Source of the DNA: an uncultured Chloroflexia bacterium
GTDB taxonomy: Bacteria; Chloroflexota; Anaerolineae; Anaerolineales; UBA11858
DNA length: 64,000 nucleotides
Direction: 5' to 3'
NCBI GenBank assembly: GCA_963827805.1
Contig: CAWHCC010000008.1
Span: forward strand, 26,921 to 90,920
The translations under genes were made by a program, and so were the position numbers. The notes under the pieces are model-generated. The model saw only the letters and a program-made list of their open reading frames with translations, ran no database searches and was not told where the DNA came from. Below, one piece after another: positions 14,154 through 58,598 of this stretch; position 1 is the first letter of the stretch, and each line of letters starts with the position of its first letter.

Positions 14154-14173
14154 CTAAATCCCAAGGAATCGCG

Positions 14174-14211
14174 CAGGCAGAACGTCATGATGACGTTCTG
14201 CCTGTTTTTTT
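14174..14211 (+). terminator. Intrinsic terminator (14-bp stem plus T7) between convergent genes
   Basis: caggcagaacgtca-tga-tgacgttctgcctg followed by ttttttt. Confidence 0.6.
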
Positions 14212-14258: not shown

Positions 14259-14870
14259 TTAGGAGTTTACAGTCCTCAACCTTCGGGCCAAGAAGATCAC
14301 TACCACCAAAGCGGCAGCTAACGCAATCATCCCTGGGATCCCAAAATCGTCCGCGAAGCCAGTATCCGGCAAGCCCGTAGCTGCGGGTGTAGCCGTACCA
14401 CCTCCAGCTTGCTGGGTTAGCAATGCCGAAACCGTGGCGGTACGCGGATCTGTAGTGGCTTGCACAGCCCCAGCCGGCGTATCCGTGGGCGCTAACACAG
14501 GGGTAGGACTCGATGTCGCGGTAATCGGAGCGGGTGATGATGTTCCCGTGGGGGTATGCGTCCAAGCTTGCGCTTGAGCCGTCATCTCTGCGGCCATGGC
14601 AACTTCGGTATTTTGGATATTTATTTGGGCAGCCTGTGTGCTCTGCGCATCACGCCGCTGGGGCATGAACACCATTGCATACACAGCCATGCAGACCAGC
14701 GCCAAAATTAGAACAGCACCTAAAATACCTGCAACCAGCCAGAACGTTCGGTTGTCACTCCCCCCCTCTGAGGCATCATCATCTTCAAAGTCATCGAATT
14801 CATCTACGGGTTCATCATCTTCAAATTCGAAATCACTAAAATCATCCATATTATTTCCTTTCTCCTCCAA
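14259..14870 (-). CDS. LPXTG-motif (LPDTG) cell-wall-sorting protein with an acidic cytoplasmic N-terminus and a signal-anchor TM
   Basis: The C-terminus reads LPDTG, then a hydrophobic helix, then RRLR, a classic sortase signal. The middle is Thr/Pro/Ala-rich. The N-terminus, MEEKGNNMDDFSDFEFEDDE…, precedes a TM helix. Confidence 0.6.
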   Translation of the reverse strand: MEEKGNNMDDFSDFEFEDDEPVDEFDDFEDDDASEGGSDNRTFWLVAGILGAVLILALVCMAVYAMVFMPQRRDAQSTQAAQINIQNTEVAMAAEMTAQAQAWTHTPTGTSSPAPITATSSPTPVLAPTDTPAGAVQATTDPRTATVSALLTQQAGGGTATPAATGLPDTGFADDFGIPGMIALAAALVVVIFLARRLRTVNS

Positions 14871-14917: not shown

Positions 14918-15973
14918 TTACGTCAAAACTTCAAGATTTGCCAGGGGAACAATCGCAGTTTCTCCATTTTCGAGATTGATTTTGGCTGATTTAGCCCGCA
15001 ATCCACTGGGAAGTTCCGCTGGTTTACCGAGAATATACTCTATCGTACCAATTGAATTTTGATCTTTCGCACGCATCAGGCGCACTTTTTGGCCTGCGGC
15101 ATAGTCTTCGGTTTCCACCGGAAGGCTGGGATCGTTAGAAGACGATAACGGGATGGCTATCTCTGGACGAGTCCCCAAAAAATGATCAAAAGGAACCGCG
15201 TTGATAGAAACCTCGCGATTCTGGTTGGTGGTTAGCAAATTATAGCTTGCTGAATCTAATGGTCGGAAACCAAAACCGCGCAGCACAACAATAGGGTACG
15301 GCATTTTTTCAGCCAGAGGAACCAAAGCGGCTGACATGCTGGAGAGGATAAGACCCTTTATCGGAATATCCACCGCGTTGCGGAGTGCTTTTGGCTGGTC
15401 ACAATAGCCACTTAATATGACTGTTCCTCGCAGGCTGACATCTAATTGATCGCTGCTCAATTTTCCATCTGGCGCTTCAAGCATGTTCTGCATCAATCCA
15501 AAATCCATATGTCCATTTCCCCAGACACCTTGAATTAACGCCCCTACAGTTTCGATTACCGCGCCGCGATCAGATATTAAGTCAGTGACAACACCAGCCA
15601 TGCCAGATCGAAGTTCATGCGGTAAAGTATCAACTTCAAGTAGAATTTTCCCGTTACGAATAATGGAAATTCTGCCAGAAACCGGCGCTCGTAATACTCG
15701 GCGGGTGATGCCGACAGGACCAGCAATCAAATCACCTTCAGCAACTTCATCTCCAGCCTCACGCTGAATAAAAGATTGTGCTTCTTTAGCAGAAACACCC
15801 AAAGCGCGCGGGACATTGAGCAACAAATGTTCTGGAGCTAAAGTCGCTTCAGCGATGATATCACGGGGCGCAACTTTTTGCCCCTGACGAACAAGCACCC
15901 TCCCCGATACGGGAAGCGCTCGTTCTCGCCGGATGGTGGTCAGGGGCAACACATGAACAATGGAGGCCAACAT
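14918..15973 (-). CDS. Hypothetical protein (possible beta-rich SAF/barrel-like fold)
   Basis: 351-aa ORF in an operon with the flanking genes. No confident family assignment. Confidence 0.45.
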   Translation of the reverse strand: MLASIVHVLPLTTIRRERALPVSGRVLVRQGQKVAPRDIIAEATLAPEHLLLNVPRALGVSAKEAQSFIQREAGDEVAEGDLIAGPVGITRRVLRAPVSGRISIIRNGKILLEVDTLPHELRSGMAGVVTDLISDRGAVIETVGALIQGVWGNGHMDFGLMQNMLEAPDGKLSSDQLDVSLRGTVILSGYCDQPKALRNAVDIPIKGLILSSMSAALVPLAEKMPYPIVVLRGFGFRPLDSASYNLLTTNQNREVSINAVPFDHFLGTRPEIAIPLSSSNDPSLPVETEDYAAGQKVRLMRAKDQNSIGTIEYILGKPAELPSGLRAKSAKINLENGETAIVPLANLEVLT

Positions 15974-16104: not shown

Positions 16105-17856
16105 TTAACTACCAAACACCCACTGCCATTTAGCAAACATTTCCCGTCGCCGGCTGTCATCATTGTGAAGTACTATTGGACGGCCACGAGCATCAATTAC
16201 CACGCCATGCACTCCACCGACCATGCGCAAGCGTCCACCTCGGCCGGGACCTCCCATACCAATATCAAATCTATGAAGGGGTTGTAAGCGCAGGTTGACC
16301 GTTTGCCCCAGAGGCACTGGCAATATTTCTAGGGAGCCATATTTCACTTCCATGCGGGTTTCACTCCCATCCGCATAGGTAATCTGCAAACGTAAGATTG
16401 ATGTACCTGGGCGAGCTTCACCAACAGGTGAAATAACTGCTCCTAAGTTTAACATATTGGCTTCAAGCACTTGAACAACCAAAGTAGGGTTGATATCTGC
16501 GGCAGCACCTAAAGCAGCCGTTAGATTGCCCAGATCTAAAAGTATGGTCGTGATTCCGGTTGGTTGAAGACCATCTAACAAAGTTAACAAGCTGCTCCCA
16601 TGAGAAGGAGCATGTGTGAAAACCCTCCCGCGTGCGAGAATTGGTTCAAAACCAGGCAACAATCCAGGATTAGGGGTTGCTACTCTTCCAGGAAATCCAG
16701 TAGCCGTTTGCTTCGTGCTAAGTCGAATAACTTCACGTACAATAGCCTGTTCGATGGCCTGTTCGATGGCTGTAGCAGGAATAGCAGATGGATATGCTGC
16801 TTTTTGATAGATATAATCTCGAATATCATTATCGCTTAATTCTTCGGTAAGCCAGCGCGAAATATTTTTCAAACGGGTGCGCTTGAGAATGCCTGGCAGG
16901 CCAAGCCCTAAACCAAGATCTGGGTAAACGCCCGAGGTCAGCTGACCAGCAAAACCTGCGGCCACGGTAGCTGCAGAGGCGCCAATATCAATTCCTAAAA
17001 CCCCTTTTTCTGGGTCATACAGGCGGCTGAGAAAACGGATCATACGACCGAAGGCTGATGCAGTTGGCATCAAATTTCCCCCGGTCCACCCATCAATTTC
17101 TTGAACACCGAGAATTTTCTGTCTGCGTATCTGGCGATGAATTTGAGCCAGCTTCATCTGGGCAGCATCCAACTGCTCAATTTCCAATGTTGGGCGAATA
17201 TTAGGCGCAAAATGCAATGTTGCAGCACCATCCAACAAAGATCGAATATCTCGACGAACTGCCTTGTTCCCGGCAAATAACACTTGAGGACGCAAACTTT
17301 CTGGCAATAAACGACAGGCCAATCCTACTGTCTCCAACAGGTTCTTTATGGATCGATCTGCTCCATCCTCGGTGCCACCAGCAGCAATAATCAAATCAGG
17401 GCGTGTTCGCAAAATCAAATCAATTCTGGCATCTTGCTTTCGGCGGTCATTCAAACTCAAAGTTTCAACGACTTCAGCATAAGTAGTCGCAGCCAAGCGT
17501 CGAGCGCTTTCTAAAGAAACATTTTCTAATAAACCTACAGCCACCACTTTGAGTGGCGGACCTACAGAAATTGTAGCAGCCAAAGAATCAACCCCAGAGC
17601 CATCCGAAGCACTCGGCATAATGATGCTTTCATCGTCTCGCAATAGTAAACGCCCTGAGATTTCTTGAAGCTGATCCAAGGCTCTTCGAACACCTTCACC
17701 GACATCTCGAAATGGTGCGCCTGCGGTTGTTACTGCGGAACCGGCTGCCAGGAAACGATAGCGGCCATCTACCACATCGAACAAAAGGGCACGAGTCGTA
17801 GTCGTCCCAATATCGATTGAAAGAAGAGAATCTGCGGAGACAAGTGATGTGGTCAT
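16105..17856 (-). CDS. ASKHA-superfamily (actin/Hsp70/sugar-kinase fold) ATPase-like protein
   Basis: The N-terminal phosphate-1 motif SIDIGTTTTRALLFD resembles PilM-, GlmL- and hydantoinase-type nucleotide-binding motifs. 583 aa. Confidence 0.5.
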   Translation of the reverse strand: MTTSLVSADSLLSIDIGTTTTRALLFDVVDGRYRFLAAGSAVTTAGAPFRDVGEGVRRALDQLQEISGRLLLRDDESIIMPSASDGSGVDSLAATISVGPPLKVVAVGLLENVSLESARRLAATTYAEVVETLSLNDRRKQDARIDLILRTRPDLIIAAGGTEDGADRSIKNLLETVGLACRLLPESLRPQVLFAGNKAVRRDIRSLLDGAATLHFAPNIRPTLEIEQLDAAQMKLAQIHRQIRRQKILGVQEIDGWTGGNLMPTASAFGRMIRFLSRLYDPEKGVLGIDIGASAATVAAGFAGQLTSGVYPDLGLGLGLPGILKRTRLKNISRWLTEELSDNDIRDYIYQKAAYPSAIPATAIEQAIEQAIVREVIRLSTKQTATGFPGRVATPNPGLLPGFEPILARGRVFTHAPSHGSSLLTLLDGLQPTGITTILLDLGNLTAALGAAADINPTLVVQVLEANMLNLGAVISPVGEARPGTSILRLQITYADGSETRMEVKYGSLEILPVPLGQTVNLRLQPLHRFDIGMGGPGRGGRLRMVGGVHGVVIDARGRPIVLHNDDSRRREMFAKWQWVFGS

Positions 17857-17860
17857 AATG

Positions 17861-20713
17861 CTACGAGATGAAATTTAAAATCAGATTCCATAAATAAGAA
17901 ACTCGCTCGATAAGGGCGGTAATCGCGGCTAAATAAACACCAGAGAACAAGGCTCCAAAAGTAATGGCAATGAAAACCTGACCAACTCCGCCAATAGTTT
18001 CGAGCCACTGAGGCCGCTGGGAAGATTGATCTTCAACACTTTTGCGGCGAATTCCGAAATGGAAATAAAGTAAAGTTGTCAGGGTACCTGCCAGGATTAT
18101 GAATGCATTTAGCGGGTTGCTATTATCTTCGAATACACTCATAGAAGCTGAGGCTTGTGGGTAAATCGTTCCCAAAACGGCACCACCAATGGCAGCCGCA
18201 GCACCCACACCTACTAAATATGCCACCGCAATATTCCCAAGTTTGTTCAAACGCGGCGATATTTTGGTCAGCATAAGCGCACCTAAAATCAAGAAGAGAA
18301 TTGCGAAAAGTTTCTCTCCTCGATTACCATCTACAAAAGGAAAAACCATTTGTGGCAGAATAACATTTTGGATAACAACAATGGTTACATACCCAGCGGT
18401 GACACCGATGAAAAGATGTGCTGCAATCCGGAAGAGAACGTTGTCACCCACTATATAGCTAAATATAAATATAGTTAGCACAAACCCAAGGATTGCGCCG
18501 ATAACGTCTAACATGCTCAAATCGAAAGCACTCATGCAGATTTCTCCTTCCGATTCCTTTCGTCGAGCAAGCAGTGTAGATATTACGGTAATGCCGCCAC
18601 CAATAAGGATTGCACTGACAGCTACAATTAGAACTATATTGAAGGCATCCCAATATGATCGAGCGATATTCGGCCGGGTCATAACTTCGTAGGCGGCACC
18701 CCCGGTCAAGCCACTCACGAAACCATCAATCTGTTTTTGTTGATGCGCAAAATACGGGCGCACCATGGGTTCTGCTTGTGCACTTACCAGTACAACAAGT
18801 GGAACAGCCTCTAATTCTGGATTTACCTGTTCAACCCATGCGCGGGCGGTATTAGGATTATCTGTTATCAATACCACCAGTGAGAAGTCAGATACTTTGT
18901 CGATATTTTTGAGGGGTGCTGTCTCCCAGGCTCGCATACCATCTAAGGTTTCCGGGAAAACCCAGTTGGGGTTGCGAGCAAATGCGCCTAAACCTGTCAC
19001 TCCGCCTGGGACGTACCCCAGGTTTACATACTGATTACCACTGATATAACCGTGACTCCCCTGAATATTATTGATGAAATGTTCTGCCAATAGCGGCCCC
19101 GTCGGCGATGTTGATACCAACACTAGTTTGGTACCTTTCAGCATCATATGATCCACGACAGCAGCAGAGGCAGCCTCCATTTCACCTGCCAACCCAGGTT
19201 CGTAATCAAATGCTAATAATGCAGTATCCTCTGGGGTTAACGCATTCACCAAATTCCTGGTTTCTTCTACACCCATGGGAATATTCCCGGGGGATGGCAT
19301 AGTTGCGATTTCGCTGCCGGCCAAAACTGCCACGAACGCGATCACTACCAAAATCGCGCTCAAGATCATTCGAAAAACCCGTTGACTCGAGATTAATGGC
19401 GGTGTTGGCAATGGCTGAGATTGTTTTTCGGTTTCCAACAAATCTAACAGCACATTAGCATGCGCTTGTTGCGCTTCGGTGATCTGCAGCTTGCTAGAAT
19501 AGACCGGCGGTTTTTTCAAACGCGAGATTTCTGGCTCGGCTGCCAGCACACCGTACAGACCAGCCAATGGCCCAGAATTCTCCATTGGACCGCGTTTTTC
19601 TGAACCAGCTGCATCCGTGGGAGATGATTCAACTGGCCGCATTGCAGCCAACCATCCAGGTAATTCCGCAGGTTCCAAACCATCGACTGGACCTGTTTTT
19701 TCTTGAGTTTGGTCTAAATCAGATAAGGGTTCATCCGCTATCCAATCTGCCAACTGATCCATTTCATAGAGATCATCGACAAACTCAGCATCGCTAGCAG
19801 AAGGTGTGATCTCAACAGGCTCATCTTCAATTGCATCCGTCGCCACTGATATGGGCACATCAGCATCGCGCAACCAGTCTGGGACTGCTCGGGATTCGTC
19901 TAAAGTAGTAGGCGGTATTTCTGGCTCACTATCAGGAAGATTTTCAACCCCCTCGATTTCAGCCAGCCAATCCGGTAAATCCTCTTCAATTACAGGAGAA
20001 GCTTCAATTTCTTCGTCCCCAATATCAGCAAGCCAGGCGGGGATTTCCTCTTGATCTGCTAAAGGGGATGCTGCTTCCTTAGATAATGGGGCTTCAACGC
20101 CTTCAACATCTGACAGCCAGTCAGGAATACCTTCTTCATTTGCGGGTGGAACCACACTTTCAATTTCATCACCAGTCGCCAACCACTCGGGGGTATCCCC
20201 CCTGTCGTCACCAGCTTTGGCCAAACCAGCAGTCAGCCCAATCTTAGCAGCCATGCTGCCAATATCATCTTCTTTTTCATCATCCGCCTGCAAGTCCTGT
20301 AAATTCTCTTCCAAGACAGGGGGCGCCGCAGCTTCGACACTTGCATCGATATCATCTCTCAACCAAGCCGGGAGTTCATCGCCCGCCGGCAAAGGGGAGT
20401 CTGCTATTTGAGACTGTACTTCCTCTTCGTTTGGCGTTTCTTCTTGCTCATCAAAACTCGTCAGCCAAGCCGGTAAATCATCATCCTGATCAGGGGACGA
20501 GGGGAAACTCTCTGCCTCAAGAGCACTATCTTCAGTGCGCCAGTCCGGACTCGCCGCATCCGCTTCTGACATCTGAACCGTGGGTTCTGAAGTTCCTTCT
20601 TCTTGTTCATCAAATCCAGCCAACCACTCAGGGATATCATCTTCGGCAGCAACGGCGGCAGCATCTTCGGCTATATCTTCACCTGCAAGCCATTTAGGAA
20701 GGTCATCATCCAT
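17861..20713 (-). CDS. Large membrane protein: an acidic disordered N-terminal half with 11 D-[LI]-P-x-W-L repeats, a TM, a roughly 270-aa extracytoplasmic domain and a C-terminal 6-7 TM bundle
   Basis: 950 aa. Repeats are DLPKWL, DIPEWL, DLPAWL, ELPAWL, DTPEWL, GIPDWL, EIPAWL, DLPDWL, AVPDWL, LADWIA and ELPGWL, each separated by D/E-rich linkers. Confidence 0.6.
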   Translation of the reverse strand: MDDDLPKWLAGEDIAEDAAAVAAEDDIPEWLAGFDEQEEGTSEPTVQMSEADAASPDWRTEDSALEAESFPSSPDQDDDLPAWLTSFDEQEETPNEEEVQSQIADSPLPAGDELPAWLRDDIDASVEAAAPPVLEENLQDLQADDEKEDDIGSMAAKIGLTAGLAKAGDDRGDTPEWLATGDEIESVVPPANEEGIPDWLSDVEGVEAPLSKEAASPLADQEEIPAWLADIGDEEIEASPVIEEDLPDWLAEIEGVENLPDSEPEIPPTTLDESRAVPDWLRDADVPISVATDAIEDEPVEITPSASDAEFVDDLYEMDQLADWIADEPLSDLDQTQEKTGPVDGLEPAELPGWLAAMRPVESSPTDAAGSEKRGPMENSGPLAGLYGVLAAEPEISRLKKPPVYSSKLQITEAQQAHANVLLDLLETEKQSQPLPTPPLISSQRVFRMILSAILVVIAFVAVLAGSEIATMPSPGNIPMGVEETRNLVNALTPEDTALLAFDYEPGLAGEMEAASAAVVDHMMLKGTKLVLVSTSPTGPLLAEHFINNIQGSHGYISGNQYVNLGYVPGGVTGLGAFARNPNWVFPETLDGMRAWETAPLKNIDKVSDFSLVVLITDNPNTARAWVEQVNPELEAVPLVVLVSAQAEPMVRPYFAHQQKQIDGFVSGLTGGAAYEVMTRPNIARSYWDAFNIVLIVAVSAILIGGGITVISTLLARRKESEGEICMSAFDLSMLDVIGAILGFVLTIFIFSYIVGDNVLFRIAAHLFIGVTAGYVTIVVIQNVILPQMVFPFVDGNRGEKLFAILFLILGALMLTKISPRLNKLGNIAVAYLVGVGAAAAIGGAVLGTIYPQASASMSVFEDNSNPLNAFIILAGTLTTLLYFHFGIRRKSVEDQSSQRPQWLETIGGVGQVFIAITFGALFSGVYLAAITALIERVSYLWNLILNFIS

Positions 20714-21790
20714 CTCATCAGAGTCGAGTCAGAGATTCTGGTTGAAGATCAATCTCCCCAGTTGGCGGGTCTAAATCTGGAACTTCGCTCTCTACCGCAG
20801 CAGCGCTGACCACATCAGCCCCATCATCATCGAGCATGCCATAAAGAGTACCCGTGTCCATATCAAATGGCTTTTGAGGTCTGGGTAAATCTTCTGTTTG
20901 AGCTTCTTCTTGAGCCCTCAAATCAGCCAGCCAATCAGGAGGGTCGGAATCTTCAGCGCTCAAAACTGGAGGTTCGCCTTCCGCAGATGGGACATCATCG
21001 GCGCCAAGTCCTGATAACCAATCTGGCAAATCACTTTCTTCAGAGGGTGAAATGCTTTCTGCTTCTTCTGCACCAGCAGAGAGCCAGTCGGGTAAATCCG
21101 CTTCTTCCGCCCCGAGCGCTGGACTTGCTTCATCGGATTGAAGGTAATCTTCGATGGGGATCGTCTCCTGGCCAATATAGCCTGGAGTTTCTTCATGTGA
21201 AGGTGTTTCTTCGTCCCCTCCTTCGGAGAGCCAACCGGGCAAAACATCGCCTGTTCCAGAAGGAATATCGGTCTCATCCCCGCGGTCTGAAGTTAACCAA
21301 TCGGGCAAATCTCCCTCTTCTGATGTGAAAGGTGACTCAGGGGCTGCTGATGACAAATCGCCTAATGGCGCATCATCTTCCTGGGCATCGCTGCCAGAAA
21401 GCCAATCTGGCAAATCGCTGGTTTCATCGATGGGTTTGGGGCTTTCAGCTTCTTCTTCAACTGAGAGCCAAGAGGGGAAATCAGAATCGCTGGATTCTTG
21501 GGCTGTTCCCAAGGATGGCGTGGTTCTTTCCGTTTCCATATCTTCAAGCCAGTCGGGGATACCGTTATTATTGAAGTCCATACGAGAGGCAGCCTCACGT
21601 TCGGAATCTGGGTCGGCTGTTGCTTGAGGAAGAGGAGATTTTTCAGGTTCAGAATCACCGCCAAGCCGGGTCATCCAGTCATCGGTTTCATCTTCAAAGG
21701 GAGCATCGTCATCTGTCTCGCTAAAATCCGCATCAGAATCAAAATCCAGCCAATCCGGCAACTCTGAGCCAGAACTCTGTGTCCTCCGGG
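19393..21790 (-). repeat. Coding tandem array of about 20 short 'acidic linker + D-[LI]-P-x-W-L' motifs spanning two adjacent ORFs
   Basis: Visible in the translations of ORFs 17861..20713 and 20718..21761. Spacing is about 25-40 aa. Confidence 0.6.
20718..21761 (-). CDS. Highly acidic disordered protein with 9 D-[LI]-P-x-W-L repeats; likely the continuation of the upstream zinc-ribbon ORF
   Basis: 347 aa. Repeats are PDWL, IPDWL, FPSWL, DLPDWL (x3), VLPGWL and PPDWL. The ORF begins at a TTG, and the frame upstream reads …SGSELPDWL, which continues the motif. Confidence 0.55.
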   Translation of the reverse strand: MPDWLDFDSDADFSETDDDAPFEDETDDWMTRLGGDSEPEKSPLPQATADPDSEREAASRMDFNNNGIPDWLEDMETERTTPSLGTAQESSDSDFPSWLSVEEEAESPKPIDETSDLPDWLSGSDAQEDDAPLGDLSSAAPESPFTSEEGDLPDWLTSDRGDETDIPSGTGDVLPGWLSEGGDEETPSHEETPGYIGQETIPIEDYLQSDEASPALGAEEADLPDWLSAGAEEAESISPSEESDLPDWLSGLGADDVPSAEGEPPVLSAEDSDPPDWLADLRAQEEAQTEDLPRPQKPFDMDTGTLYGMLDDDGADVVSAAAVESEVPDLDPPTGEIDLQPESLTRL

Positions 21791-21969
21791 ATTACCGGAT
21801 CATCTGAGGGGGTAGAAGCAATGAGAGGTTTTAGACGCGCTTGACAAAACTGGCAAATATCCAGGTTGTTGGGGTTGGGCTTTCCACACATGGGGCAACG
21901 TATTTCAGCCATTGATTTATCCACTGTAAGGGCGATCAGTGCCCATGAGAATCCGAATTCCGGTGGCAA
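21739..21969 (-). CDS. Zinc-ribbon protein (CPMCG…CQFC); probably the N-terminus of the repeat protein, separated from it by a 1-nt indel
   Basis: MAEIRCPMCGKPNPNNLDICQFCQARL. Deleting one T near 21775 fuses …PEDTE to SGSELPDWLDFD…. Confidence 0.45.
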   Translation of the reverse strand: MPPEFGFSWALIALTVDKSMAEIRCPMCGKPNPNNLDICQFCQARLKPLIASTPSDDPVIPEDTEFWLRVAGLAGF

Positions 21970-22582
21970 TAATGCCCAATGCTACACCAAGTAAGACACC
22001 TCGAGAACCACCAACGGTCGGAACTTGCAGGATCCAATCTCGGATTTCAGTCGCCAGACCAAAGCTGGAGGCGAACGCAGGGATTGCGCCGATCAGCAAT
22101 ATCAGAACGACGATGACGAAGATCGCCGACATGAAATTCAGTTTGCGAGCAAAAAGGCGGGTGGCTGCATAAGTGAGGCTGATCGCGATAATAGCCATAA
22201 GACTAGATTCAACAGGCAATTGAATATTCTCAAATATCCACCGCGTATAGCGCAATCCCTGGGCTCCCTGCCAATAAGTCATCACAAGATCATAAGCGCC
22301 AACCAAAAGTGTAAATACAAGGGCAGTCACTGTAATCAGGCTGTAGGCCGCTCCATCTCCCCGGCAAATCTTTTTCACATGCACAGATGTTAAATTGAAT
22401 ACGCCAACTATTACTGCCACGCCCGCAACAATGATTGTCCCTTGAAGAAAATAGTCACGCAAAATGCCAAGGATGGTAGTTCCACCGGATGAGTTTGTAC
22501 CAAAGAAATAACCGAGCAGGACAATCAAGCCCACGCTAATGGCAATTGCTACAGATATTGGGGCTCGAAACTTAAGTTTCAT
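21917..22582 (-). CDS. Integral membrane protein (about 5 TM), unknown function
   Basis: 221 aa, hydrophobic. Overlaps the downstream neighbour by 4 nt (translational coupling). Confidence 0.5.
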   Translation of the reverse strand: MKLKFRAPISVAIAISVGLIVLLGYFFGTNSSGGTTILGILRDYFLQGTIIVAGVAVIVGVFNLTSVHVKKICRGDGAAYSLITVTALVFTLLVGAYDLVMTYWQGAQGLRYTRWIFENIQLPVESSLMAIIAISLTYAATRLFARKLNFMSAIFVIVVLILLIGAIPAFASSFGLATEIRDWILQVPTVGGSRGVLLGVALGIIATGIRILMGTDRPYSG

Positions 22583-23361
22583 AGAAGGCCCCCTAACATA
22601 TCAACGAGGATGGTATCCAGGTCGAGTGCCTTAGCAATCACACCAAGGATGATTATTGCGACGATTGCCCAACGAATAATATCTTGGGCGCGTAGGCTGG
22701 CATCGTGTGTGGGTCCAGCATTGAGATAAGCACCCCCTGCATATAATTCTTCACCAATCAGGGGTTCATGAGCCGTGGCATAAAGCACAGCCTGAGCAGG
22801 AAGACTATCTGTACCGGCGAGGGTCATATTATCACTGCGCTCACCGGCATCCGTAATCAGGGCAACCTCGCTGCCAAAATGTCCCGCCAAAATATTTGCT
22901 CCGGTCTTATCGTCGCTCGCGAGTGACATGGTACCGGCTGCATAAGAGAAAGGTGTTAGACCTGTTACTCTACCGGAGGTGGCATCAAATTGTTCACCCA
23001 AACCGATCCGCTGGTAAGTGCCGCGCAATGTATCTTGTGCCAAAACTCCAAGAGTTCCCTCACCAGCTGTGGCGATGGGCGGATTGTCACCCGTGGATGT
23101 AGAGCCTGCCATCCGTTCGAGTATGCTCAACCCGATAAAAGCTGTGGCACTTTCTGGACCATTAACCCCACCTTGCCCAATACTGATATGCAAGCGCGAT
23201 CCCGCTTCCACAGCAAGACCAATCGCCCGGCGTAACTTGGTAAATGCTGAAATCCTGCGTAAATTCAACTCTGGGCGACTGCGGCCCGAAGCTACAAAAA
23301 TTACGATCAAACCAAAAAATATGAGGATAAAAACAAAACCAAGCAGGCCGGATAGAGTCAC
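22579..23361 (-). CDS. Bitopic membrane protein with a large extracytoplasmic Gly/Ala/Thr-rich domain, unknown function
   Basis: 260 aa. TM helices at the N- and C-termini. Confidence 0.5.
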   Translation of the reverse strand: MTLSGLLGFVFILIFFGLIVIFVASGRSRPELNLRRISAFTKLRRAIGLAVEAGSRLHISIGQGGVNGPESATAFIGLSILERMAGSTSTGDNPPIATAGEGTLGVLAQDTLRGTYQRIGLGEQFDATSGRVTGLTPFSYAAGTMSLASDDKTGANILAGHFGSEVALITDAGERSDNMTLAGTDSLPAQAVLYATAHEPLIGEELYAGGAYLNAGPTHDASLRAQDIIRWAIVAIIILGVIAKALDLDTILVDMLGGLL

Positions 23362-33356: not shown

Positions 33357-34571
33357 CAGGGCAATCGCATATGACTATCCAGCCAGAACCTTGAGAAGAT
33401 AATCGTTATTCCAACCCGCCTGCAAACGCTTGGCTTTGATACCACCTTTAGCAGAAGTTTCCTGCTTGAGTAGATTGACAGCCATGTGACGCAAGACCGC
33501 CAGGTTGGCTGGGGCATGATCCTTGCGGACCCGACTGCGGTCTTCGTTGAAAGCAATATCGAGAACCCAGTGGAGGCCATTTTCGATGCCCCAGTGTTGA
33601 CGCGTCGCTTTCAGGAACCGTTTGGCATTGGCCGGCAAGCTGGAAATGAAGAAGCGAACTTTGATGGTTTCTTCATCATCAATGATGCGTCGTCGCACAA
33701 GCATGCTAATACTCCGCAAATTCGTCCACTTCTGAGTCTGTCTGACGCTATCCAGATATTCAGGATCCGAAGTGGCCCAACACTCCCGCACATCAATCCG
33801 TCCGTGGCCTTTCTTGACTTCCTTGTCGTAATCATAGGGTGCCTCTTGAAAGCCCTGCTGTTGGTCATAGGAGAACAGCATTTCGAGATCACGATACAGA
33901 TGGCCTTGGTTTTGTTTGACCGCCAACAGGTAATCGGCTTCCGCAGCGATGATTTGCTTAGCGATCTTGGTCTGCGTACCCAGCGCATCGATCGTGACGA
34001 TACAGCCTTTGATGGCCAGCAGGCGTAATAACTCTGGAATCGCAGTGATTTCGTTGCTTTTCTCTGCCACTTGGCGCTGTCCCAGCACCAGATGGTTTTG
34101 CTCTGCCCAGGCGCTCACCATATAAATCGCACGCTTTCCTTGACTGCGATCATGGGAGCCGCGCATCTGTTTGCCATCAATCCCGATCACCTGTCCTTGC
34201 GTGATTTCGCGTAAAGCCTTGACCCATTTCATGAAGCTAGCCTGGAATTCTTCCGGATCGATCAGCGCAAATACCCTGCCAAACGTGTCATGCGATGGGA
34301 TCCCCTTGGGCAACCACAAGTATTGGCTCAACCAGTTCAGCTTCTGATAGCCGAACTGCTCAATTTCAACCCAGCCATCTGCACCGCAGATCGTTCCCAG
34401 GATGGCGATGGTAATGATATCGAATAACTGGTGTGATACATTTGGCCCACGCGGATCGTTTATGTTGGAAAAGTGCTCTTCCAGACTATGGATTGGCTCT
34501 GTTGGCATGGTAATTCTCCTCCTGATTTCTTTGGATTACCATTATCTCATTTTTTATATGCGATTGCCCTG
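33357..34571 (-). mobile_element. ISAs1-family insertion sequence (1215 bp) with perfect 16-bp terminal inverted repeats and a 10-bp target-site duplication
   Basis: IRs are CAGGGCAATCGCATAT at 33357-33372 and its reverse complement at 34556-34571. Direct repeats ACTATAAAGA flank the element at 33347-33356 and 34572-34581. Confidence 0.8.
33375..34508 (-). CDS. ISAs1-family transposase (H-repeat-associated/YhhI-like DDE)
   Basis: The family-typical N-terminus (DPRGPNVSHQLFDIITIAILGTICGADGWVEIEQFG…GIPSHDTFGRVF) and C-terminus (HWGIENGLHWVLDIAFNED). 377 aa, intact. Confidence 0.85.
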   Translation of the reverse strand: MPTEPIHSLEEHFSNINDPRGPNVSHQLFDIITIAILGTICGADGWVEIEQFGYQKLNWLSQYLWLPKGIPSHDTFGRVFALIDPEEFQASFMKWVKALREITQGQVIGIDGKQMRGSHDRSQGKRAIYMVSAWAEQNHLVLGQRQVAEKSNEITAIPELLRLLAIKGCIVTIDALGTQTKIAKQIIAAEADYLLAVKQNQGHLYRDLEMLFSYDQQQGFQEAPYDYDKEVKKGHGRIDVRECWATSDPEYLDSVRQTQKWTNLRSISMLVRRRIIDDEETIKVRFFISSLPANAKRFLKATRQHWGIENGLHWVLDIAFNEDRSRVRKDHAPANLAVLRHMAVNLLKQETSAKGGIKAKRLQAGWNNDYLLKVLAG

Positions 34572-35483: not shown

Positions 35484-38400
35484 ATGAATAAAACAAAACT
35501 TACTCTAATCCTCGGTGCCATTCTCCTATTGGCTCTGGCATTCGGTTTTAGCAGCCAGGCAACCGCCCAAAACAATAGCAGCCAAAAAGTCACCGCCCCC
35601 CCTGGAACTTTTGTAGCCAATCAGCCCGGCGTCACCTTGCTGCACGATTATGGCTCTTTTGCTCTATACCAGGTAAATGATACGGCCTTACAAAATTTAT
35701 CTTTCAGCGAACTGCAACAGATTACGCCTGTGGATGAGCGCATTTTGCTGGATGCCTATCCTTTCAACCCGCAGACAGATCGAACTCGAAATTCCTGCTA
35801 CATTTCGTCTGGATGAGGCCAGCAGCAATGGACTACAGATCGTTCAATTCGTGGGTCCCATCAAAGATGAATGGCTGAAAACCTTACGAGATGCCGGGGT
35901 CACGCCAATCCAGTATATTGCCAACCATGCTTATCTTGTTTGGGCAAATGACTCTAGCCGAACACAGCTCAACAATATGGCGGACGAAAATAATTTCTTG
36001 CAATATAGTGCCCCCTACCAACCTTACTTCAAACTAGGGGCTCAGATTCGTAATGAGGTTGTAAACCCATCCACGGTGAGCAGTGCTGAAAGCATTCCAG
36101 TGGTGATTCAAATTTACAACCATCCAGGAAATTTGCACTCCAAGGAAGTGATTCGATCCCTATCCATTAATCAAATTTCTGACTGGTCGCCGATTTTGGC
36201 ATATGAAAACGCCATTATTACCCTTCGCATCAGTGATCTAGCTGCAATCTCGCAGCTATCCGATGTGGTTTGGCTAAATCAGAAATTGGCACCCGAACTG
36301 ACGGATGAGGTCCAGGGTCAAATCCTGGCAGGCAACTTTGACGCCACCCAGTCAGGGCCTTCTGGCCCTGGGTACCTGACTTGGCTGAACAGTTATAGCT
36401 TCAGTACCGACCCGTCTGATTATCCCATCGTGGATGTCACCGATGATGGCATCGGCAACGGTACGGTCAACTCTGGCGATCCTACCTTACATCAAACAGG
36501 TAACCTTGCAAATCCTACCCGGTTGTCTTATGTGGCCAACTGTACTGATTCCGCCGATGGCGGCGGACCCGATGGACACGGCCATATCAACGTCAGTATT
36601 GTTGGTGGTTACGATACTACCTCTGGTTTTCCTTTTGTCGATCCACTGGGATATCAACGCGGGCTGGGAATTAACCCCTTTGGTCGCCTTGCCGGCACTC
36701 GCATCTTCGATGCAAGTGGTTATGATATCAGCAGTTGTAGTGGCACCGACACAGGTGTCATCAAGAGTGTGCAAGATAACGGCGCACTGATTAACACCAA
36801 TTCTTGGGGCTGCTCGGGATGTGCAGGCAGCTATGATGATTCATCGCAGGCTTATGATGTCGGTGTACGCGATGCTGATCTCACCGAGACGGGCAACCAG
36901 GAGATGATCATTGTTTTCTCCGCTGGGAATTCTGGTTCCAGTGCGAACACGATTGGCACACCCGGCAACGGTAAGAATATGATCACCGTAGGAGCCTCAG
37001 AAAACGACCGTCCATCCGATGAAGATGGCAATTGGACCGATGGCTGCGGCATTGGACCCATCGGTGCTGATAATGCCATGGATGTGATCTCTTTCTCCAG
37101 CCGTGGTCCGGCACCGGGTGGACGTGTAAAGCCTGAAATCATCGCTCCTGGAACCCATATCCAGGGCACCGCCAGTACGAACGCCAGTTATAACGGCAGC
37201 GGTGTTTGCGATCAATATCGGCCATCCGGGCAAACTATTTTTGCCTCATCATCGGGTACCAGTCACTCTACACCAGCTGTAGCTGGTGTGAGCTCACTGG
37301 CTTATTGGTGGCTAGAAAACACCTACAGCCTAACCCCCAGCCCGGCGATGATGAAAGCTTACTTAATCGCACACCCAACCTACCTGACCGGAGTCAGTGC
37401 CAACGACACCTTGCCCAGTAACAACCAGGGTTATGGTATGCCCAATATGTCACTGATGTTCGATACTGCTGACAAATACTTGCTCGACCAGTCCGTGATT
37501 TTCGATAATTCTGGTGAAACCTGGACTTGGAGCGGCGGTGTAGCTGATAACACCAAGCCCGTGCGTATCGTCTTGGTCTATACCGATGCGCCTGGCGCGA
37601 TCGGCACTAGCCCGCAGGTCAATGATCTCAACCTCAGTGCTACGGTTGACAGCTCAACTTACCTGGGAAATATCTTCACCGGACAGTGGAGCGCCACTGG
37701 CGGGACCGCAGATTCAGCCAACAATTACGAAGCCATCTTCCTGCCAGCAAGCACAACGGGCAGCATCAATATTACGGTGACCGGATTCAATATTGCCGGG
37801 GATGGTGTTCCGAATGTGGGGGACAGCACCGACCAAGATTTCGCAATTGTTTGCTACAACTGCAGTCAGACGCCCGATTTCACAGTAGATGCAACCCCCG
37901 CGGCGTTGGATATTTGCCTTCCAGATGATGCCGATTATAACGTTTCAGTCGGCGCGATCAATGGTTTTTCTGATCCTGTTACTTTGAGTGTTACTGGAAA
38001 TCCAGGTTCTGCATCTTTCTCAACGAACCCGGTCACACCTCCAGGCAGCAGCACCATGACAATCAGTGGTGCAGGTGCTGGTAATTACACACTGGCTATC
38101 ACTGGCACAGGCGGCAGCCCACCAATCCTGCATACCGATAACGTTGATTTGAACGTTTCTGCTGCTGCACCTACAGTTCCAACACTCACTACCCCGGCCG
38201 ATACCGCTACAGGGGTTCCAGTAACTCCCACATTTAGTTGGTCAGACACTGGCGCTAGCAGCTATCTTTTGGAAGTGGCTACTGATTCTGGTTTTAGCAA
38301 TATCGTGTACAGTGTGACTGAAACAAACACCAGCCACACAGCCGGTAGCAGCCTGAGCACGAACACAGAATATTACTGGCGCATCACAGCCCAAAACGGT

Positions 38401-40314
38401 TGTGGTAGTTCACCTTCCTCTGTTTTTTCATTTACCACCCAAACGGGCTCGTTGGTTTGTAATGGCTCTGTTGTAGATTTCAATGGCGGCTTGCCCGTTG
38501 ATTGGTCCGTAATCGATAATGAAAGCACAGGTGTGGTTTGGACGCTAACCGGGAGTACCGGTTATCCAACAGATTGTGGAGAAAGCAACTATACCGGTGG
38601 GAGCGGAGCTGCTGTTTGCGCCTCCAGTGACCAATTTGGCGCAGCAGAATTTGACACGGAAGTTCGGAGCGGCCCTTTCGACTTAACGGGGTTCGCATCT
38701 GCTGCGCTCACCTATGAAGCTAATTACGCCAATTATGTAGGTCTGGATTTTCTTAATCTGGAAATCAGCACAAATGGCGGCAGCAATTGGACCAACTTGC
38801 TGAGTTGGAATGAAGATCATCACCCCAATGGGCTCCGTGTTCCGCCGGGCGAGTCAGTCAATGTTGATTTATCAGCCTATTTAGGCATGAGCGGTTTACT
38901 CCTACGGTGGCATTATTATGACCCAAACTTAGGTGATTGGGGTTGGTATGCTCAATTTGACGATGTTGCACTAACTTGTGTAAGTGGTTCACCCCCCGTA
39001 ATTGAGGTTAATCCTGTGAATTTAGAAGCTAGCCTGATCCCAGATGTGCAGATCACTCAAACCTTGATAATCAGCAATACTGGTGGCTCTGATTTGGATT
39101 GGACTATCTTCGAGGATAGTGAAACCAGCATAGTACCGCCACCAAGTGCTTCATCACTTAGTTCGGCTTCGAACCTTTTGCAATTTGGAGAAAGCAATGT
39201 GATCTCCGGCACAGCCGAAAATAATAATGCTCTAATAACACCAAATGCTTTGCAGGCTATCATTGACCAGGCACCCAACCAGTCCAATGGCATCTTTTCC
39301 GATAGCAATTGTGATGGTTGTGACAACCCACAACAAGTATTGGCTGAAAATTTCACCTTATCTGTTGATGCAACGATTACCAGTATCGTCATGTGGGGTG
39401 GATACTTTCCAGGCAATACCCCGGCAAGCCCTGATGTGTTTACCGTAATCATCCACCAGGATTCTAGCGGTCTACCTGGAACGACCCTTTCTACCGAAAA
39501 TAATGTTCCATATACACGCGTGCAAACCGGAGTGGTTCTCTTTGGCGTTGATGAGTGGATGCACACACTCACGCTGGCTAATCCTGTCATCTTAACGCCC
39601 GGCTCTTATTGGATCGAGATTTACAACGATACCGGAACCGGGACGGATGACTACTTCTGGGAGGTTTCCAATGCTGACACCATTGGAAACGGGATTATCG
39701 GCTCAGGATACGCTTTTGAAGCACCAGGAGTAAGCTGGAATCTCGATGCGGTTAATGATTTTGCTATACAACTCATCGGGGATATTGTTGCCACTTGCGA
39801 TGTTCCTACAGATATCACCTGGTTGAACATTTCAACCACCAGCGGCACGATCACACCGGATCTGAGTGACGCTCTGGATGTGATTTACGACTCGACCGGG
39901 TTAGCCACTGGCGAATATACCAGCACGCTGTGTATCGACAGCAACGATCCGGTCACTCCACAGGTTCAAGTGCCCGTCACCATGACAGTCTGTACCCAAC
40001 CTGCCACCGTCACTGATGTGAGCATCAGCCGTAGCGGCAATGACGTCACCTTAAACTGGACAGCTGTGCCAGGGGCTACAGCCTATCGGATTTACCGGGC
40101 CACAAACAATCCCTACTATACTCCCGGGATAAGCTTTATCTATGATCTGACCCCCACCAATACCTATACGGATCTAGGTGCGGCAGGTGATATAGATAAT
40201 AACTATTATTATGTGGTGCAGGTAGTCAATTCCTGTGGTGCAAGTTCGGTTGAATCTGAAGCATCAAACCGCACGGCTGAGTTTGATTATCCAATCCAGC
40301 CCGGTACGCCCTAA
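35484..40314 (+). CDS. Multidomain S8 subtilase-family serine peptidase (about 1600 aa) with FN3-like and beta-sandwich C-terminal domains; a frameshift near 35785 separates the signal/propeptide start from the main frame
   Basis: Catalytic triad contexts DVTDDGIG, HGHINVSIVGG and SGTSHSTPAVAG, plus NSWG. The signal peptide MNKTKLTLILGAILLLALA sits in ORF 35466..35816, which joins the 1545-aa ORF 35677..40314 after a 1-nt shift. Confidence 0.75.
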
Positions 40315-56947: not shown

Positions 56948-58598
56948 TTACATCATTCCGCCCATGCCGCCGCCCATGCCGCCGCCTGGGGGCATCGAAG
57001 CTTCGGGTTCGGGGATGTCTGTAATCAGGGCTTCGGTGGTCAGGATCATAGCTGCGATAGAAGCAGCATTTTCCAGAGCGCCGCGGGTAACCTTTGCGGG
57101 GTCAATCACGCCGGCTTTGACCATATCACCGTATTCTTCGGTGAGTACGTTGTAGCCAAGTTTTGTATCTTTCTTCTCAGCCTGTTGGCGGCGGACGTTC
57201 TCCAAAATTACGGAACCGTCTTTACCAGCATTGGCAGAGATTTTGCGCATGGGAACTTCCAAGGCATCTCGCACAACGTTAACCCCAATCTGAGCATCTG
57301 GGTAATCCATCTTGAGGTCATCCAGAACGTGCATCGCATTGATCAACGCCACACCACCACCTGGAACGATACCGTCTTCAACGGCCGCGCGGGTTGCGGA
57401 GAGTGCATCTTCAACGCGGTGCTTCTTTTCTTTCAACTCAGTCTCGGTTGCAGCGCCAACACGGATGATGGCCACGCCGCCGGAGAGTTTTGCCAGACGT
57501 TCTTGTAGTTTTTCACGGTCGTAATCGCTGGTGCTCTTGTCAATCTCGACACGGATTTGCTCAATGCGGCCTTTGATGGCAGCAACATCACCGGTTCCAC
57601 CAACAATGGTGGTGTCATCTTTTGTGGAGATGATCTTCTCCGCACGGCCCAAATCATCAATGGTGACGCTGTCCAGCTTGCGGCCCATCTCTTCGGTAAC
57701 CACAGTACCGCCGGTCAGAACAGCGATATCCTGTAACATAGCTTTGCGGCGGTCACCAAATCCGGGGGCTTTGATGGCCAAAACGTTGAGCATGCCGCGC
57801 AACTTATTGAGTACCAGGGTGGCCAGTGCTTCACCGTCAATATCTTCAGCGATGATCACAAATTCGCGCTTGCCGATTTGTACCAGTTTTTCGAGGATCG
57901 GAACAATATCTTGAGCGGCAGAGATTTTCTTGTCATGGATCAAGACGTAAGCATCATCGATATTGGCTTCCATTGATTTCGGGGTCCGTGATGAAATAAG
58001 GTGAAAGGTAGCCGCGATCAAACTGCATACCCTCAACATACTCGGTCTCGAACTCAAGGCCGCGGGATTCTTCGACGGTGATAACGCCATCTTTACCAAC
58101 TTTGTCCATCACATCGGCGATCAACTCACCAATAGTGCGATCTTGAGCAGAAATGGAAGCCACATTGGCAATATCTTCGTGGGTTTCAACCTCAATAGAA
58201 TTGTCGCTGATTTCTTTGGCGACAGCTTCAGCAGCGGCTAAAATACCCAGCTTCAACAGCATAGGGTTAGCGCCAGCAGCCAAGTTTCGCATACCACCGG
58301 TCACAATTGAGTGAGCCAAAACGGTGGAAGTAGTGGTGCCATCACCAGCAATATCATTGGTCTTGGTAGCAGCTTCTTTGAGGAGCTGCGCGCCCATATT
58401 CTCAAAGGGATCTTCCAATTCGATTTCTTTCGCAACGGTCACACCGTCGTGGGTAATGGTGGGGCTACCAAATTTTCGATCTAATGCCACATTGCGGCCC
58501 TTAGGGCCCAGGGTGGTGACAACTGCTTTTGCCAGGGTGTCAATGCCCTTAATCAGGCTGCGGCGAGCCTCATCAGAAAATACTAATTGTTTTGCCAT
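56948..58598 (-). pseudogene. groL: Chaperonin GroEL, split by a 1-nt insertion in a C-run near 57997
   Basis: ORF 57954..58598 is the GroEL N-terminus and runs to …YFITDPE. ORF 56948..58099 is the remainder, including the C-terminal GGM repeats. Confidence 0.85.

Follow-up and report, generated by a model that had tools for sequence, protein, structure and literature searches.

By definition, a sortase substrate is secreted and has its signal peptide removed. In Gram-negative bacteria, Braun's lipoprotein Lpp is held by an outer-membrane lipid anchor, and L,D-transpeptidases act on its C-terminal Lys. Bitopic partners of actin-fold ATPases include PilN, which acts with PilM, and FtsN, which acts with FtsA. 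Published precedents come from Listeria, in which Lmo1136 is a predicted doubly anchored lipoprotein with an LPXTG motif and Lmo0880 is a LysM-bearing LPXTG protein (PMC3415414). No description of a conserved family of LPXTG proteins anchored by a transmembrane (TM) helix was found in the literature.

The protein described here, g7, is encoded by the last gene of a seven-gene minus-strand operon (g1 to g7) located in the window, the whole 64-kb stretch of DNA that was analysed. It combines a hydrophobic segment near its N-terminus with an LPDTG sequence near its C-terminus. We consider it about evenly probable that g7 is an uncleaved signal-anchor protein linked by sortase to peptidoglycan, a reading taken from its sequence and that of its relatives. 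An N-terminal membrane anchor together with a C-terminal LPXTG signal would make a covalent tie between membrane and wall probable.

The g7 gene and its family

The preliminary description placed an LPDTG-encoding open reading frame at positions 14259 to 14870. This reading frame is present on the minus strand and comprises 203 amino acids counted from a TTG codon. An ATG at 14847-14849 sits seven codons inside it, and for several reasons the true start of g7 is almost certainly this ATG at 14849 rather than the TTG: the resulting 196-residue product is 100% identical to a protein already on record (P0001), the N-termini of orthologues read M(xx)MDDF, and a Shine-Dalgarno stretch (AAGGA/GGAGGAG) lies 7-19 nt upstream. 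The reading frame is thus real, with its coding part confined to 14259..14849 (-), including the stop codon at 14259-14261. The sequence from this ATG to the hydrophobic segment contains no further in-frame start codon (ATG, GTG or TTG); a downstream start providing a normal signal peptide, which the preliminary description had named as one circumstance that would undo its proposed anchor, is therefore excluded.

The family to which g7 belongs is large. A word-indexed search retrieved 921 proteins at E<=0.01, and an exhaustive profile search of representatives clustered at 50% identity returned 1047 clusters at E<=1e-3, of which 212 also passed E<=1e-30; with few exceptions, the proteins are 180-220 aa long. 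When each GTDB species was represented by one genome, members were present in 194 genomes. The best 80 of these 194 carriers are labelled as Anaerolineales, Anaerolineae, Anaerolineaceae, Chloroflexota or 'Chloroflexia' metagenome-assembled genomes (MAGs), with the exception of one 'Nitrosomonadaceae' MAG. A locus in a MAG labelled 'uncultured Nitrosomonadaceae bacterium' (L083, CAXMRF010000005.1) carries the full operon with its flanking synteny, and this MAG has probably been mis-binned. Complete MAG chromosomes with the operon include CP070785.1, CP070764.1 and CP070639.1. Matches to g7 homologues also place the lineage in many metagenomes. The family is best explained as small, bitopic proteins of the envelope that are restricted to Anaerolineales.

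The g7 protein falls into no Pfam or NCBIfam family. The weak matches that were obtained were considered and rejected. GltJ of Myxococcus gliding (NF033761) was matched by 40 of 40 members, at about 17-23 bits against a cut-off of 450 bits and over about 115 of 671 model positions (~362-478), which fall on the first TM helix and the low-complexity stalk. SepX/GlpR (NF050100) scored 14.5 bits against a cut-off of 150 and covered only the first TM helix and the helix that follows it. Weak matches to the Mucin, Tweety, FliL, ComGG and Rv0361 families reflect low-complexity or TM similarity.

Anatomy and predicted membrane topology of g7

The g7 product begins with an acidic tail (MDDFSDFEFEDD...; aa 1-32, 14754..14849 (-)) that is disordered in the AlphaFold2 (AF2) model (pLDDT <50) and predicted to be cytoplasmic. 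Its 32 residues from the ATG include 18 Asp or Glu (56%) and no Lys or Arg, and 16% are aromatic, among them five Phe. The earlier account of about 45 strongly acidic residues was therefore right as to character and too generous as to length, the tail comprising 32 residues from the ATG or 39 from the TTG. Its proposed resemblance to the upstream repeat proteins likewise holds for composition, which is acidic and aromatic in both, and fails for motif, since the g7 tail carries DDF/DEF and not the PDWL repeat.

The tail is followed by an invariant NRTF sequence (aa 33-36) and the first TM helix, TM1, a run of 27 hydrophobic residues from F36 to M62 that is predicted to act as an uncleaved signal anchor (NRTF and TM1 together aa 33-62, 14664..14753 (-)). 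A P-x-R-R sequence and a juxtamembrane helix, helix A (AQSTQ.A.IN.QNTEVA...AWT), come next (aa 63-97, 14559..14663 (-)) and are continuous with TM1 in the model, where residues 33-96 form a single helix with pLDDT of about 90 in its TM part. The Thr/Pro/Ala-rich stalk of the preliminary description is borne out by a disordered linker of this composition at aa 98-132 (14454..14558 (-)), and it is approximately here that LysM or PDZ domains are inserted in some relatives. Conservation and the AF2 model both mark a second helix, helix B (DPRTATVSALLTQQA; aa 133-149, 14403..14453 (-)). The sortase-type motif LPDTG occupies aa 160-164 (14358..14372 (-)), 32 residues from the C-terminal end, and the remainder of the putative sorting signal (aa 165-196, 14262..14357 (-)) consists of a conserved FADDFGIPG sequence (aa 165-173), a second TM helix, TM2, formed by a 15-residue hydrophobic run (GMIALAAALVVVIFLA; aa 174-188), and the basic tail RRLRTVNS (aa 189-196). 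No globular domain is present in the 196-aa product.

Taken alone, the charges around TM1 are ambiguous with respect to orientation. With an acidic N-flank and RR beyond the helix, TM1 departs from the textbook N-in signal, which counts against the sortase tether. The same arrangement would, for TM1 by itself, favour an N-out orientation, and acidic N-tails are known to be translocated by the proton motive force in E. coli. The protein might accordingly be inverted, with the N-tail driven outside by the membrane potential and with the stalk and LPDTG left in the cytoplasm, where the motif would be irrelevant to sortase. Against this stands the charge distribution over the whole protein, which favours a topology with both ends inside: Lys and Arg residues average 1.4 for the N-tail and 3.2 for the C-tail, as against 1.9 just past TM1 on the stalk side, and inversion would leave the conserved RRLR tail exposed. 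Thr/Pro-rich linkers and LPXTG motifs are, moreover, extracytoplasmic features.

Domain fusions among the relatives argue in the same direction. In one relative (P0153), a complete Hanks-type Ser/Thr kinase (PF00069, E=2.5e-52) immediately precedes the TM1-equivalent helix, so that the N-terminal side of that helix must be cytoplasmic. In four others (P0124, P0127, P0248 and P0251), between one and three LysM domains (E down to 2.8e-30) separate helix A from helix B, and a further relative (P0130) has a PDZ domain inserted between the same two helices; the acidic tail, NRTF-TM1 and the C-terminal motif are all still present in these LysM and PDZ variants. LysM domains bind peptidoglycan. The inserts thus indicate that the stalk lies outside the membrane, in the wall compartment, and the four LysM-bearing relatives in particular point to a location in the wall. 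In the light of the kinase fusion and the stalk inserts, both of which run opposite to what inversion demands, we regard the inverted orientation as highly improbable. Other variants were also seen in the family: in a set that includes P0151 and P0165, there is an unassigned insert that seems to consist in part of about three repeats of about 80 residues, and in one member a domain of about 230 aa replaces the sorting signal.

A second question is whether TM1 is retained. If it were a long signal peptide cut after A-V-Y-A58, g7 would be an ordinary secreted LPXTG protein attached to the wall only, matching the canonical sortase pathway. Residues V56 (-3) and A58 (-1) hardly vary and obey the -3/-1 rule of signal peptidase, an observation that speaks for cleavage and against the tether. 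The hydrophobic run of TM1 nevertheless extends past this sole candidate site into MVFM, with no helix breaker at -4 to -6, and the n-region would have a net charge of about -17 with a single Arg. By inspection, g7 does not qualify as having a cleavable Sec signal peptide, given its acidic n-region, its 27-residue hydrophobic run and the continuous helix modelled across the site. Cleaved signal peptides are not expected to be strongly conserved; the conservation of NRTF and TM1 greatly exceeds what is usual for them and is also higher than that of the N-tail and stalk on either side, and the N-tail itself carries a conserved acidic-hydrophobic motif, MDDF.D, at its start. In P0153, the equivalent segment lies some 300 residues into the protein, behind the kinase domain. 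A cleaved signal peptide is, on this evidence, decidedly unlikely. TM1 instead looks like an uncleaved N-in anchor, judging from sequence and model, and the earlier prediction of a signal anchor in place of a signal peptide is upheld as a prediction by the conserved 27-residue TM1, the modelled helix and the kinase, LysM and PDZ variants.

The putative C-terminal sorting signal and the search for a sortase

The claim that g7 ends in a cell-wall sorting signal (LPDTG, a hydrophobic helix and RRLR) is confirmed at the level of sequence across the family. A motif of the form [LIM]P.[TSGA]G is present in all 120 close homologues, 30-34 residues before the C-terminus. Within it, Pro and Gly are found in all 120, Leu in 115 and Thr in 97 (with Ser in 11, Gly in 10 and Ala in 2), and the X position is occupied by at least nine different residues. 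Among 148 divergent representatives (50% identity), 136 have LPxTG or LAxTG with an almost random X, and one or other form is present in about 81 of the 85 related loci. The best-conserved columns over 136 representatives are NRTF, the LPXTG motif, the GFAD.VG.PG that follows it, and helix B. Fixed L, P, T and G around a free X, at canonical spacing to a hydrophobic helix and a basic tail (family-mean Lys and Arg content 3.2), is the recognition pattern of sortase, and we know of no process other than sortase recognition that selects for it.

Profile searches detect many members of the family. The LPXTG anchor model TIGR01167 detects 29 of 40 members at E<=1, and PF00746 detects 14 of 40. Against a TIGR01167 cut-off of 15.9 bits, seven of the members scored individually reached 16.8-20.0 bits, and the g7 copy in the window fell short at 13.3-13.5 bits, which weighs against the tether. 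The C-terminus of g7 largely qualifies as an LPXTG sorting signal by sequence. An alternative type of C-terminal signal, the PVV-CTERM exosortase signal (NF051874), was rejected, as it scored 13.8-19 bits against a cut-off of 27 and matched the TM helix and basic tail only.

Parts of the same evidence are also compatible with a simpler arrangement, in which no sortase acts and g7 is an unprocessed hairpin that keeps its two TM helices in the membrane and both termini on the cytoplasmic side; the LPxTG-like sequence would then be kept for a turn, or for contact with the wall or a partner. TM2 and the RRLR tail are conserved above the family average over 136 representatives, which is unusual for a segment destined to be discarded. 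In 12 of the 148 representatives (about 8%), the motif is degenerate (LTDTG, LSQTG, LGKTG), the L-P part having been lost while TGF, TM2 and RRLR were retained. Both observations tell against the tether and for the hairpin, as does the sub-threshold score of the window copy. What the hairpin accommodates poorly is the exact match to sortase specificity, down to LAxTG alternatives, the canonical distance from the motif to the hydrophobic segment and basic tail, and the detection of most members by LPXTG-anchor models. An unprocessed hairpin is rather unlikely in our estimation.

The searches for a sortase bear directly on this choice. No sortase was found in the 64-kb window, where a TLxTC regular expression over all open reading frames gave chance matches only, nor in the 85 related loci (±10 kb, 1.43 Mb), where TLxTC matches were again those of chance. 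A class E sortase HMM (hmmsearch) and S. aureus SrtA (phmmer) yielded nothing below E=0.1 against 7379 open reading frames. A class E sortase consensus query, validated on sortases in the PDB, was run against a set of 5.8 billion proteins; no Chloroflexi label occurred among its best 120 matches, the named ones being Actinobacteria or generic 'sortase A' entries from metagenomes. A tblastn search of plasmids for sortases likewise gave no Chloroflexi among the matches listed or the ten most frequent genera. These results favour the hairpin and count against the tether insofar as the operon and its surroundings and the best 120 consensus matches are concerned. In favour of the tether, the sortase family has been associated with Chloroflexi in a phylum-level statement (PMC6744442), and this remark was the only literature found on sortases of the lineage.

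A novel sorting enzyme encoded by the operon itself was also considered. Neither a conserved Cys nor a Cys/His/Arg set is present in the products of g1, g2 and g4 or in the ectodomain of g3; an enzyme encoded within the operon therefore lacks support. The window and the 85 loci contain no second LPXTG-type open reading frame, which counts against the tether. The window also encodes a 1545-aa subtilase (Peptidase_S8; 35677-40314 (+)) with long C-terminal extensions, in which no LPXTG or other recognisable C-terminal anchor is present and the N-terminal signal is ambiguous. If the genomes that carry g7 have no sortase, the strict conservation of LPxTG will need a new explanation.

Operon context, proposed role and comparison with known systems

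Virtually all of the 85 related loci preserve the order g1-g7, even where g7 is only 40% identical. The flanking genes, which encode a phosphoglucomutase and a cNMP-binding protein, are syntenic too, so that synteny is weaker evidence for a functional link than it appears. The first conserved gene of the operon, g1 (22579..23361 (-)), encodes a 260-aa DUF6754 membrane protein (PF20539, E=3e-32), and no publications mentioning DUF6754 were found. It is followed by g2 (21917..22582 (-)), which encodes a 221-aa polytopic membrane protein with no family match, and by g3 and g4 (together 17861..21914 (-)), which encode a giant acidic membrane protein and a 224-aa polytopic membrane protein (g4, 17861-18535 (-)), respectively. 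The g3 product is about 1050 aa long. Its roughly 20 P[DE]WL repeats are followed by two TM helices, between which lies an extracytoplasmic domain of about 250 aa. In a relative that is 88% identical (L001:3179-6328), about 20 D/E-rich [LIV]P[DE]WL motifs precede the first TM helix of g3, which has no family match, and in sequence the repeats look like a multivalent array of short linear motifs.

In the window, g3 is frame-split near 20715-20790 relative to L001, in which g3 encodes 1049 aa and g4 is separate and encodes 224 aa. The 3' part of g3 in the window runs in frame into g4 owing to a 1-nt difference at about 18536-18545 (GAAATCTGCATGAGT in the window versus GGCACTGCATGAGT). These frame changes could be either assembly indels or real variants. 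At 56948-58598 (-), a chaperonin (Cpn60/GroEL) gene appears to be split into overlapping reading frames of 383 and 214 aa, the former matching only positions 238-488 of the Pfam model; the split may reflect another frameshift in the window, and assembly indels would then be indicated. At 33375-34508 (-), a gene for a DDE transposase (DDE_Tnp_1 and DDE_Tnp_1_assoc) suggests the presence of an insertion sequence.

Between g4 and g7 lie g5 and g6. The g5 product (16105..17856 (-)) is a 583-aa homologue of the GlmL/MutL family of actin-fold ATPases (PF13941, E=5e-63) and has no relative in the PDB by sequence. That of g6 (14918..15973 (-)) is a 351-aa cytoplasmic protein with no Pfam family; its 120 best matches listed are all about 351 aa long, and the three with a named source are from Anaerolineales or Chloroflexi. 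An AF2 model of g6 built on a 44-sequence alignment (pLDDT 85.5) contains three domains, namely an N-terminal barrel-sandwich hybrid resembling the N-termini of RnfC and NqrA, a swivelling beta/beta/alpha domain and a C-terminal KOW/Tudor/SH3-like barrel, and these modelled folds assign no function. The g6 gene ends 47 nt upstream of g7, and no promoter-like site was found in this gap. Beyond g7, the interval between g7 (-) and the convergent phosphoglucomutase gene (+) contains a perfect 15-bp palindromic hairpin at 14173..14205, which has a plus-strand T-run and is likely to be a shared terminator that marks the end of the operon.

If the sortase reading is followed through, g7 would enter the membrane as a hairpin whose two termini face the cytoplasm, and TM1 would remain as an uncleaved N-in anchor. 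A stalk of about 100 residues, made up of the helix continuous with TM1, the Thr/Pro-rich linker and the short helix B, would lie outside. A housekeeping sortase encoded elsewhere in the genome would cut LPDT|G and join Thr163 to lipid II or peptidoglycan, and the 33-residue peptide containing TM2 would be discarded, leaving a mature protein held in the membrane at one end and bound covalently to the wall at the other. The acidic, aromatic N-tail would serve as a putative cytoplasmic handle for operon partners such as the GlmL-like ATPase, g6 and the PDWL-repeat protein. A broader proposal, offered tentatively and with considerable doubt, is that g7 is a sortase-made strut from membrane to peptidoglycan, a monoderm counterpart of Braun's lipoprotein that couples an Anaerolineales-specific machine to the sacculus; this machine would comprise the GlmL-like ATPase, g6, the giant PDWL-repeat protein and the three other membrane proteins. 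Possible roles of such a strut in these filamentous bacteria include that of a stator or of a positional anchor.

Were the sortase tether to prove correct, it would constitute a second use of sortase, in which the cytoplasmic membrane and a cytoplasmic complex are coupled covalently to peptidoglycan. It would also give the first clue to the function of a seven-gene operon, so far uncharacterised, that occurs in at least 194 species-level genomes of Anaerolineales. Through the g7 family, ideas about the envelope architecture of Chloroflexota can be put to a concrete test.

The g7 protein can be compared with several described systems. With the LPXTG surface proteins (TIGR01167/PF00746), it shares the tripartite signal, the variability of the motif and a Thr/Pro-rich wall-spanning region; it differs in having a conserved acidic tail and a 27-residue anchor in place of a cleavable, positively charged signal peptide, in the absence of a folded passenger domain, and in its Chloroflexota host. 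The likeness to Lpp is the closest on the functional side, but it is an analogy only, with no sequence relationship: both would be small helical or extended proteins with an N-terminal membrane anchor and a C-terminal bond to peptidoglycan, acting as a tether or spacer, although in g7 these properties are predicted, the anchor would be a TM helix that spans the cytoplasmic membrane, and the bond would be made by a sortase acting on Thr. PilN and FtsN resemble g7 in having a short conserved cytoplasmic N-terminal peptide, a single TM helix, an extracytoplasmic helix or linker and a gene adjoining that of an actin-fold ATPase; they carry no sorting signal and show no sequence similarity to g7, and binding of the g7 tail to the GlmL-like protein is putative. 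Among the Listeria proteins, Lmo1136 provides a precedent for membrane retention combined with LPXTG, and Lmo0880 for the combination of LysM and LPXTG seen in variants P0124 and P0127. The Listeria anchor is a lipobox, whereas that of g7 is a TM helix with a cytoplasmic tail, and the Listeria cases are single proteins, whereas g7 represents a conserved family embedded in an operon.
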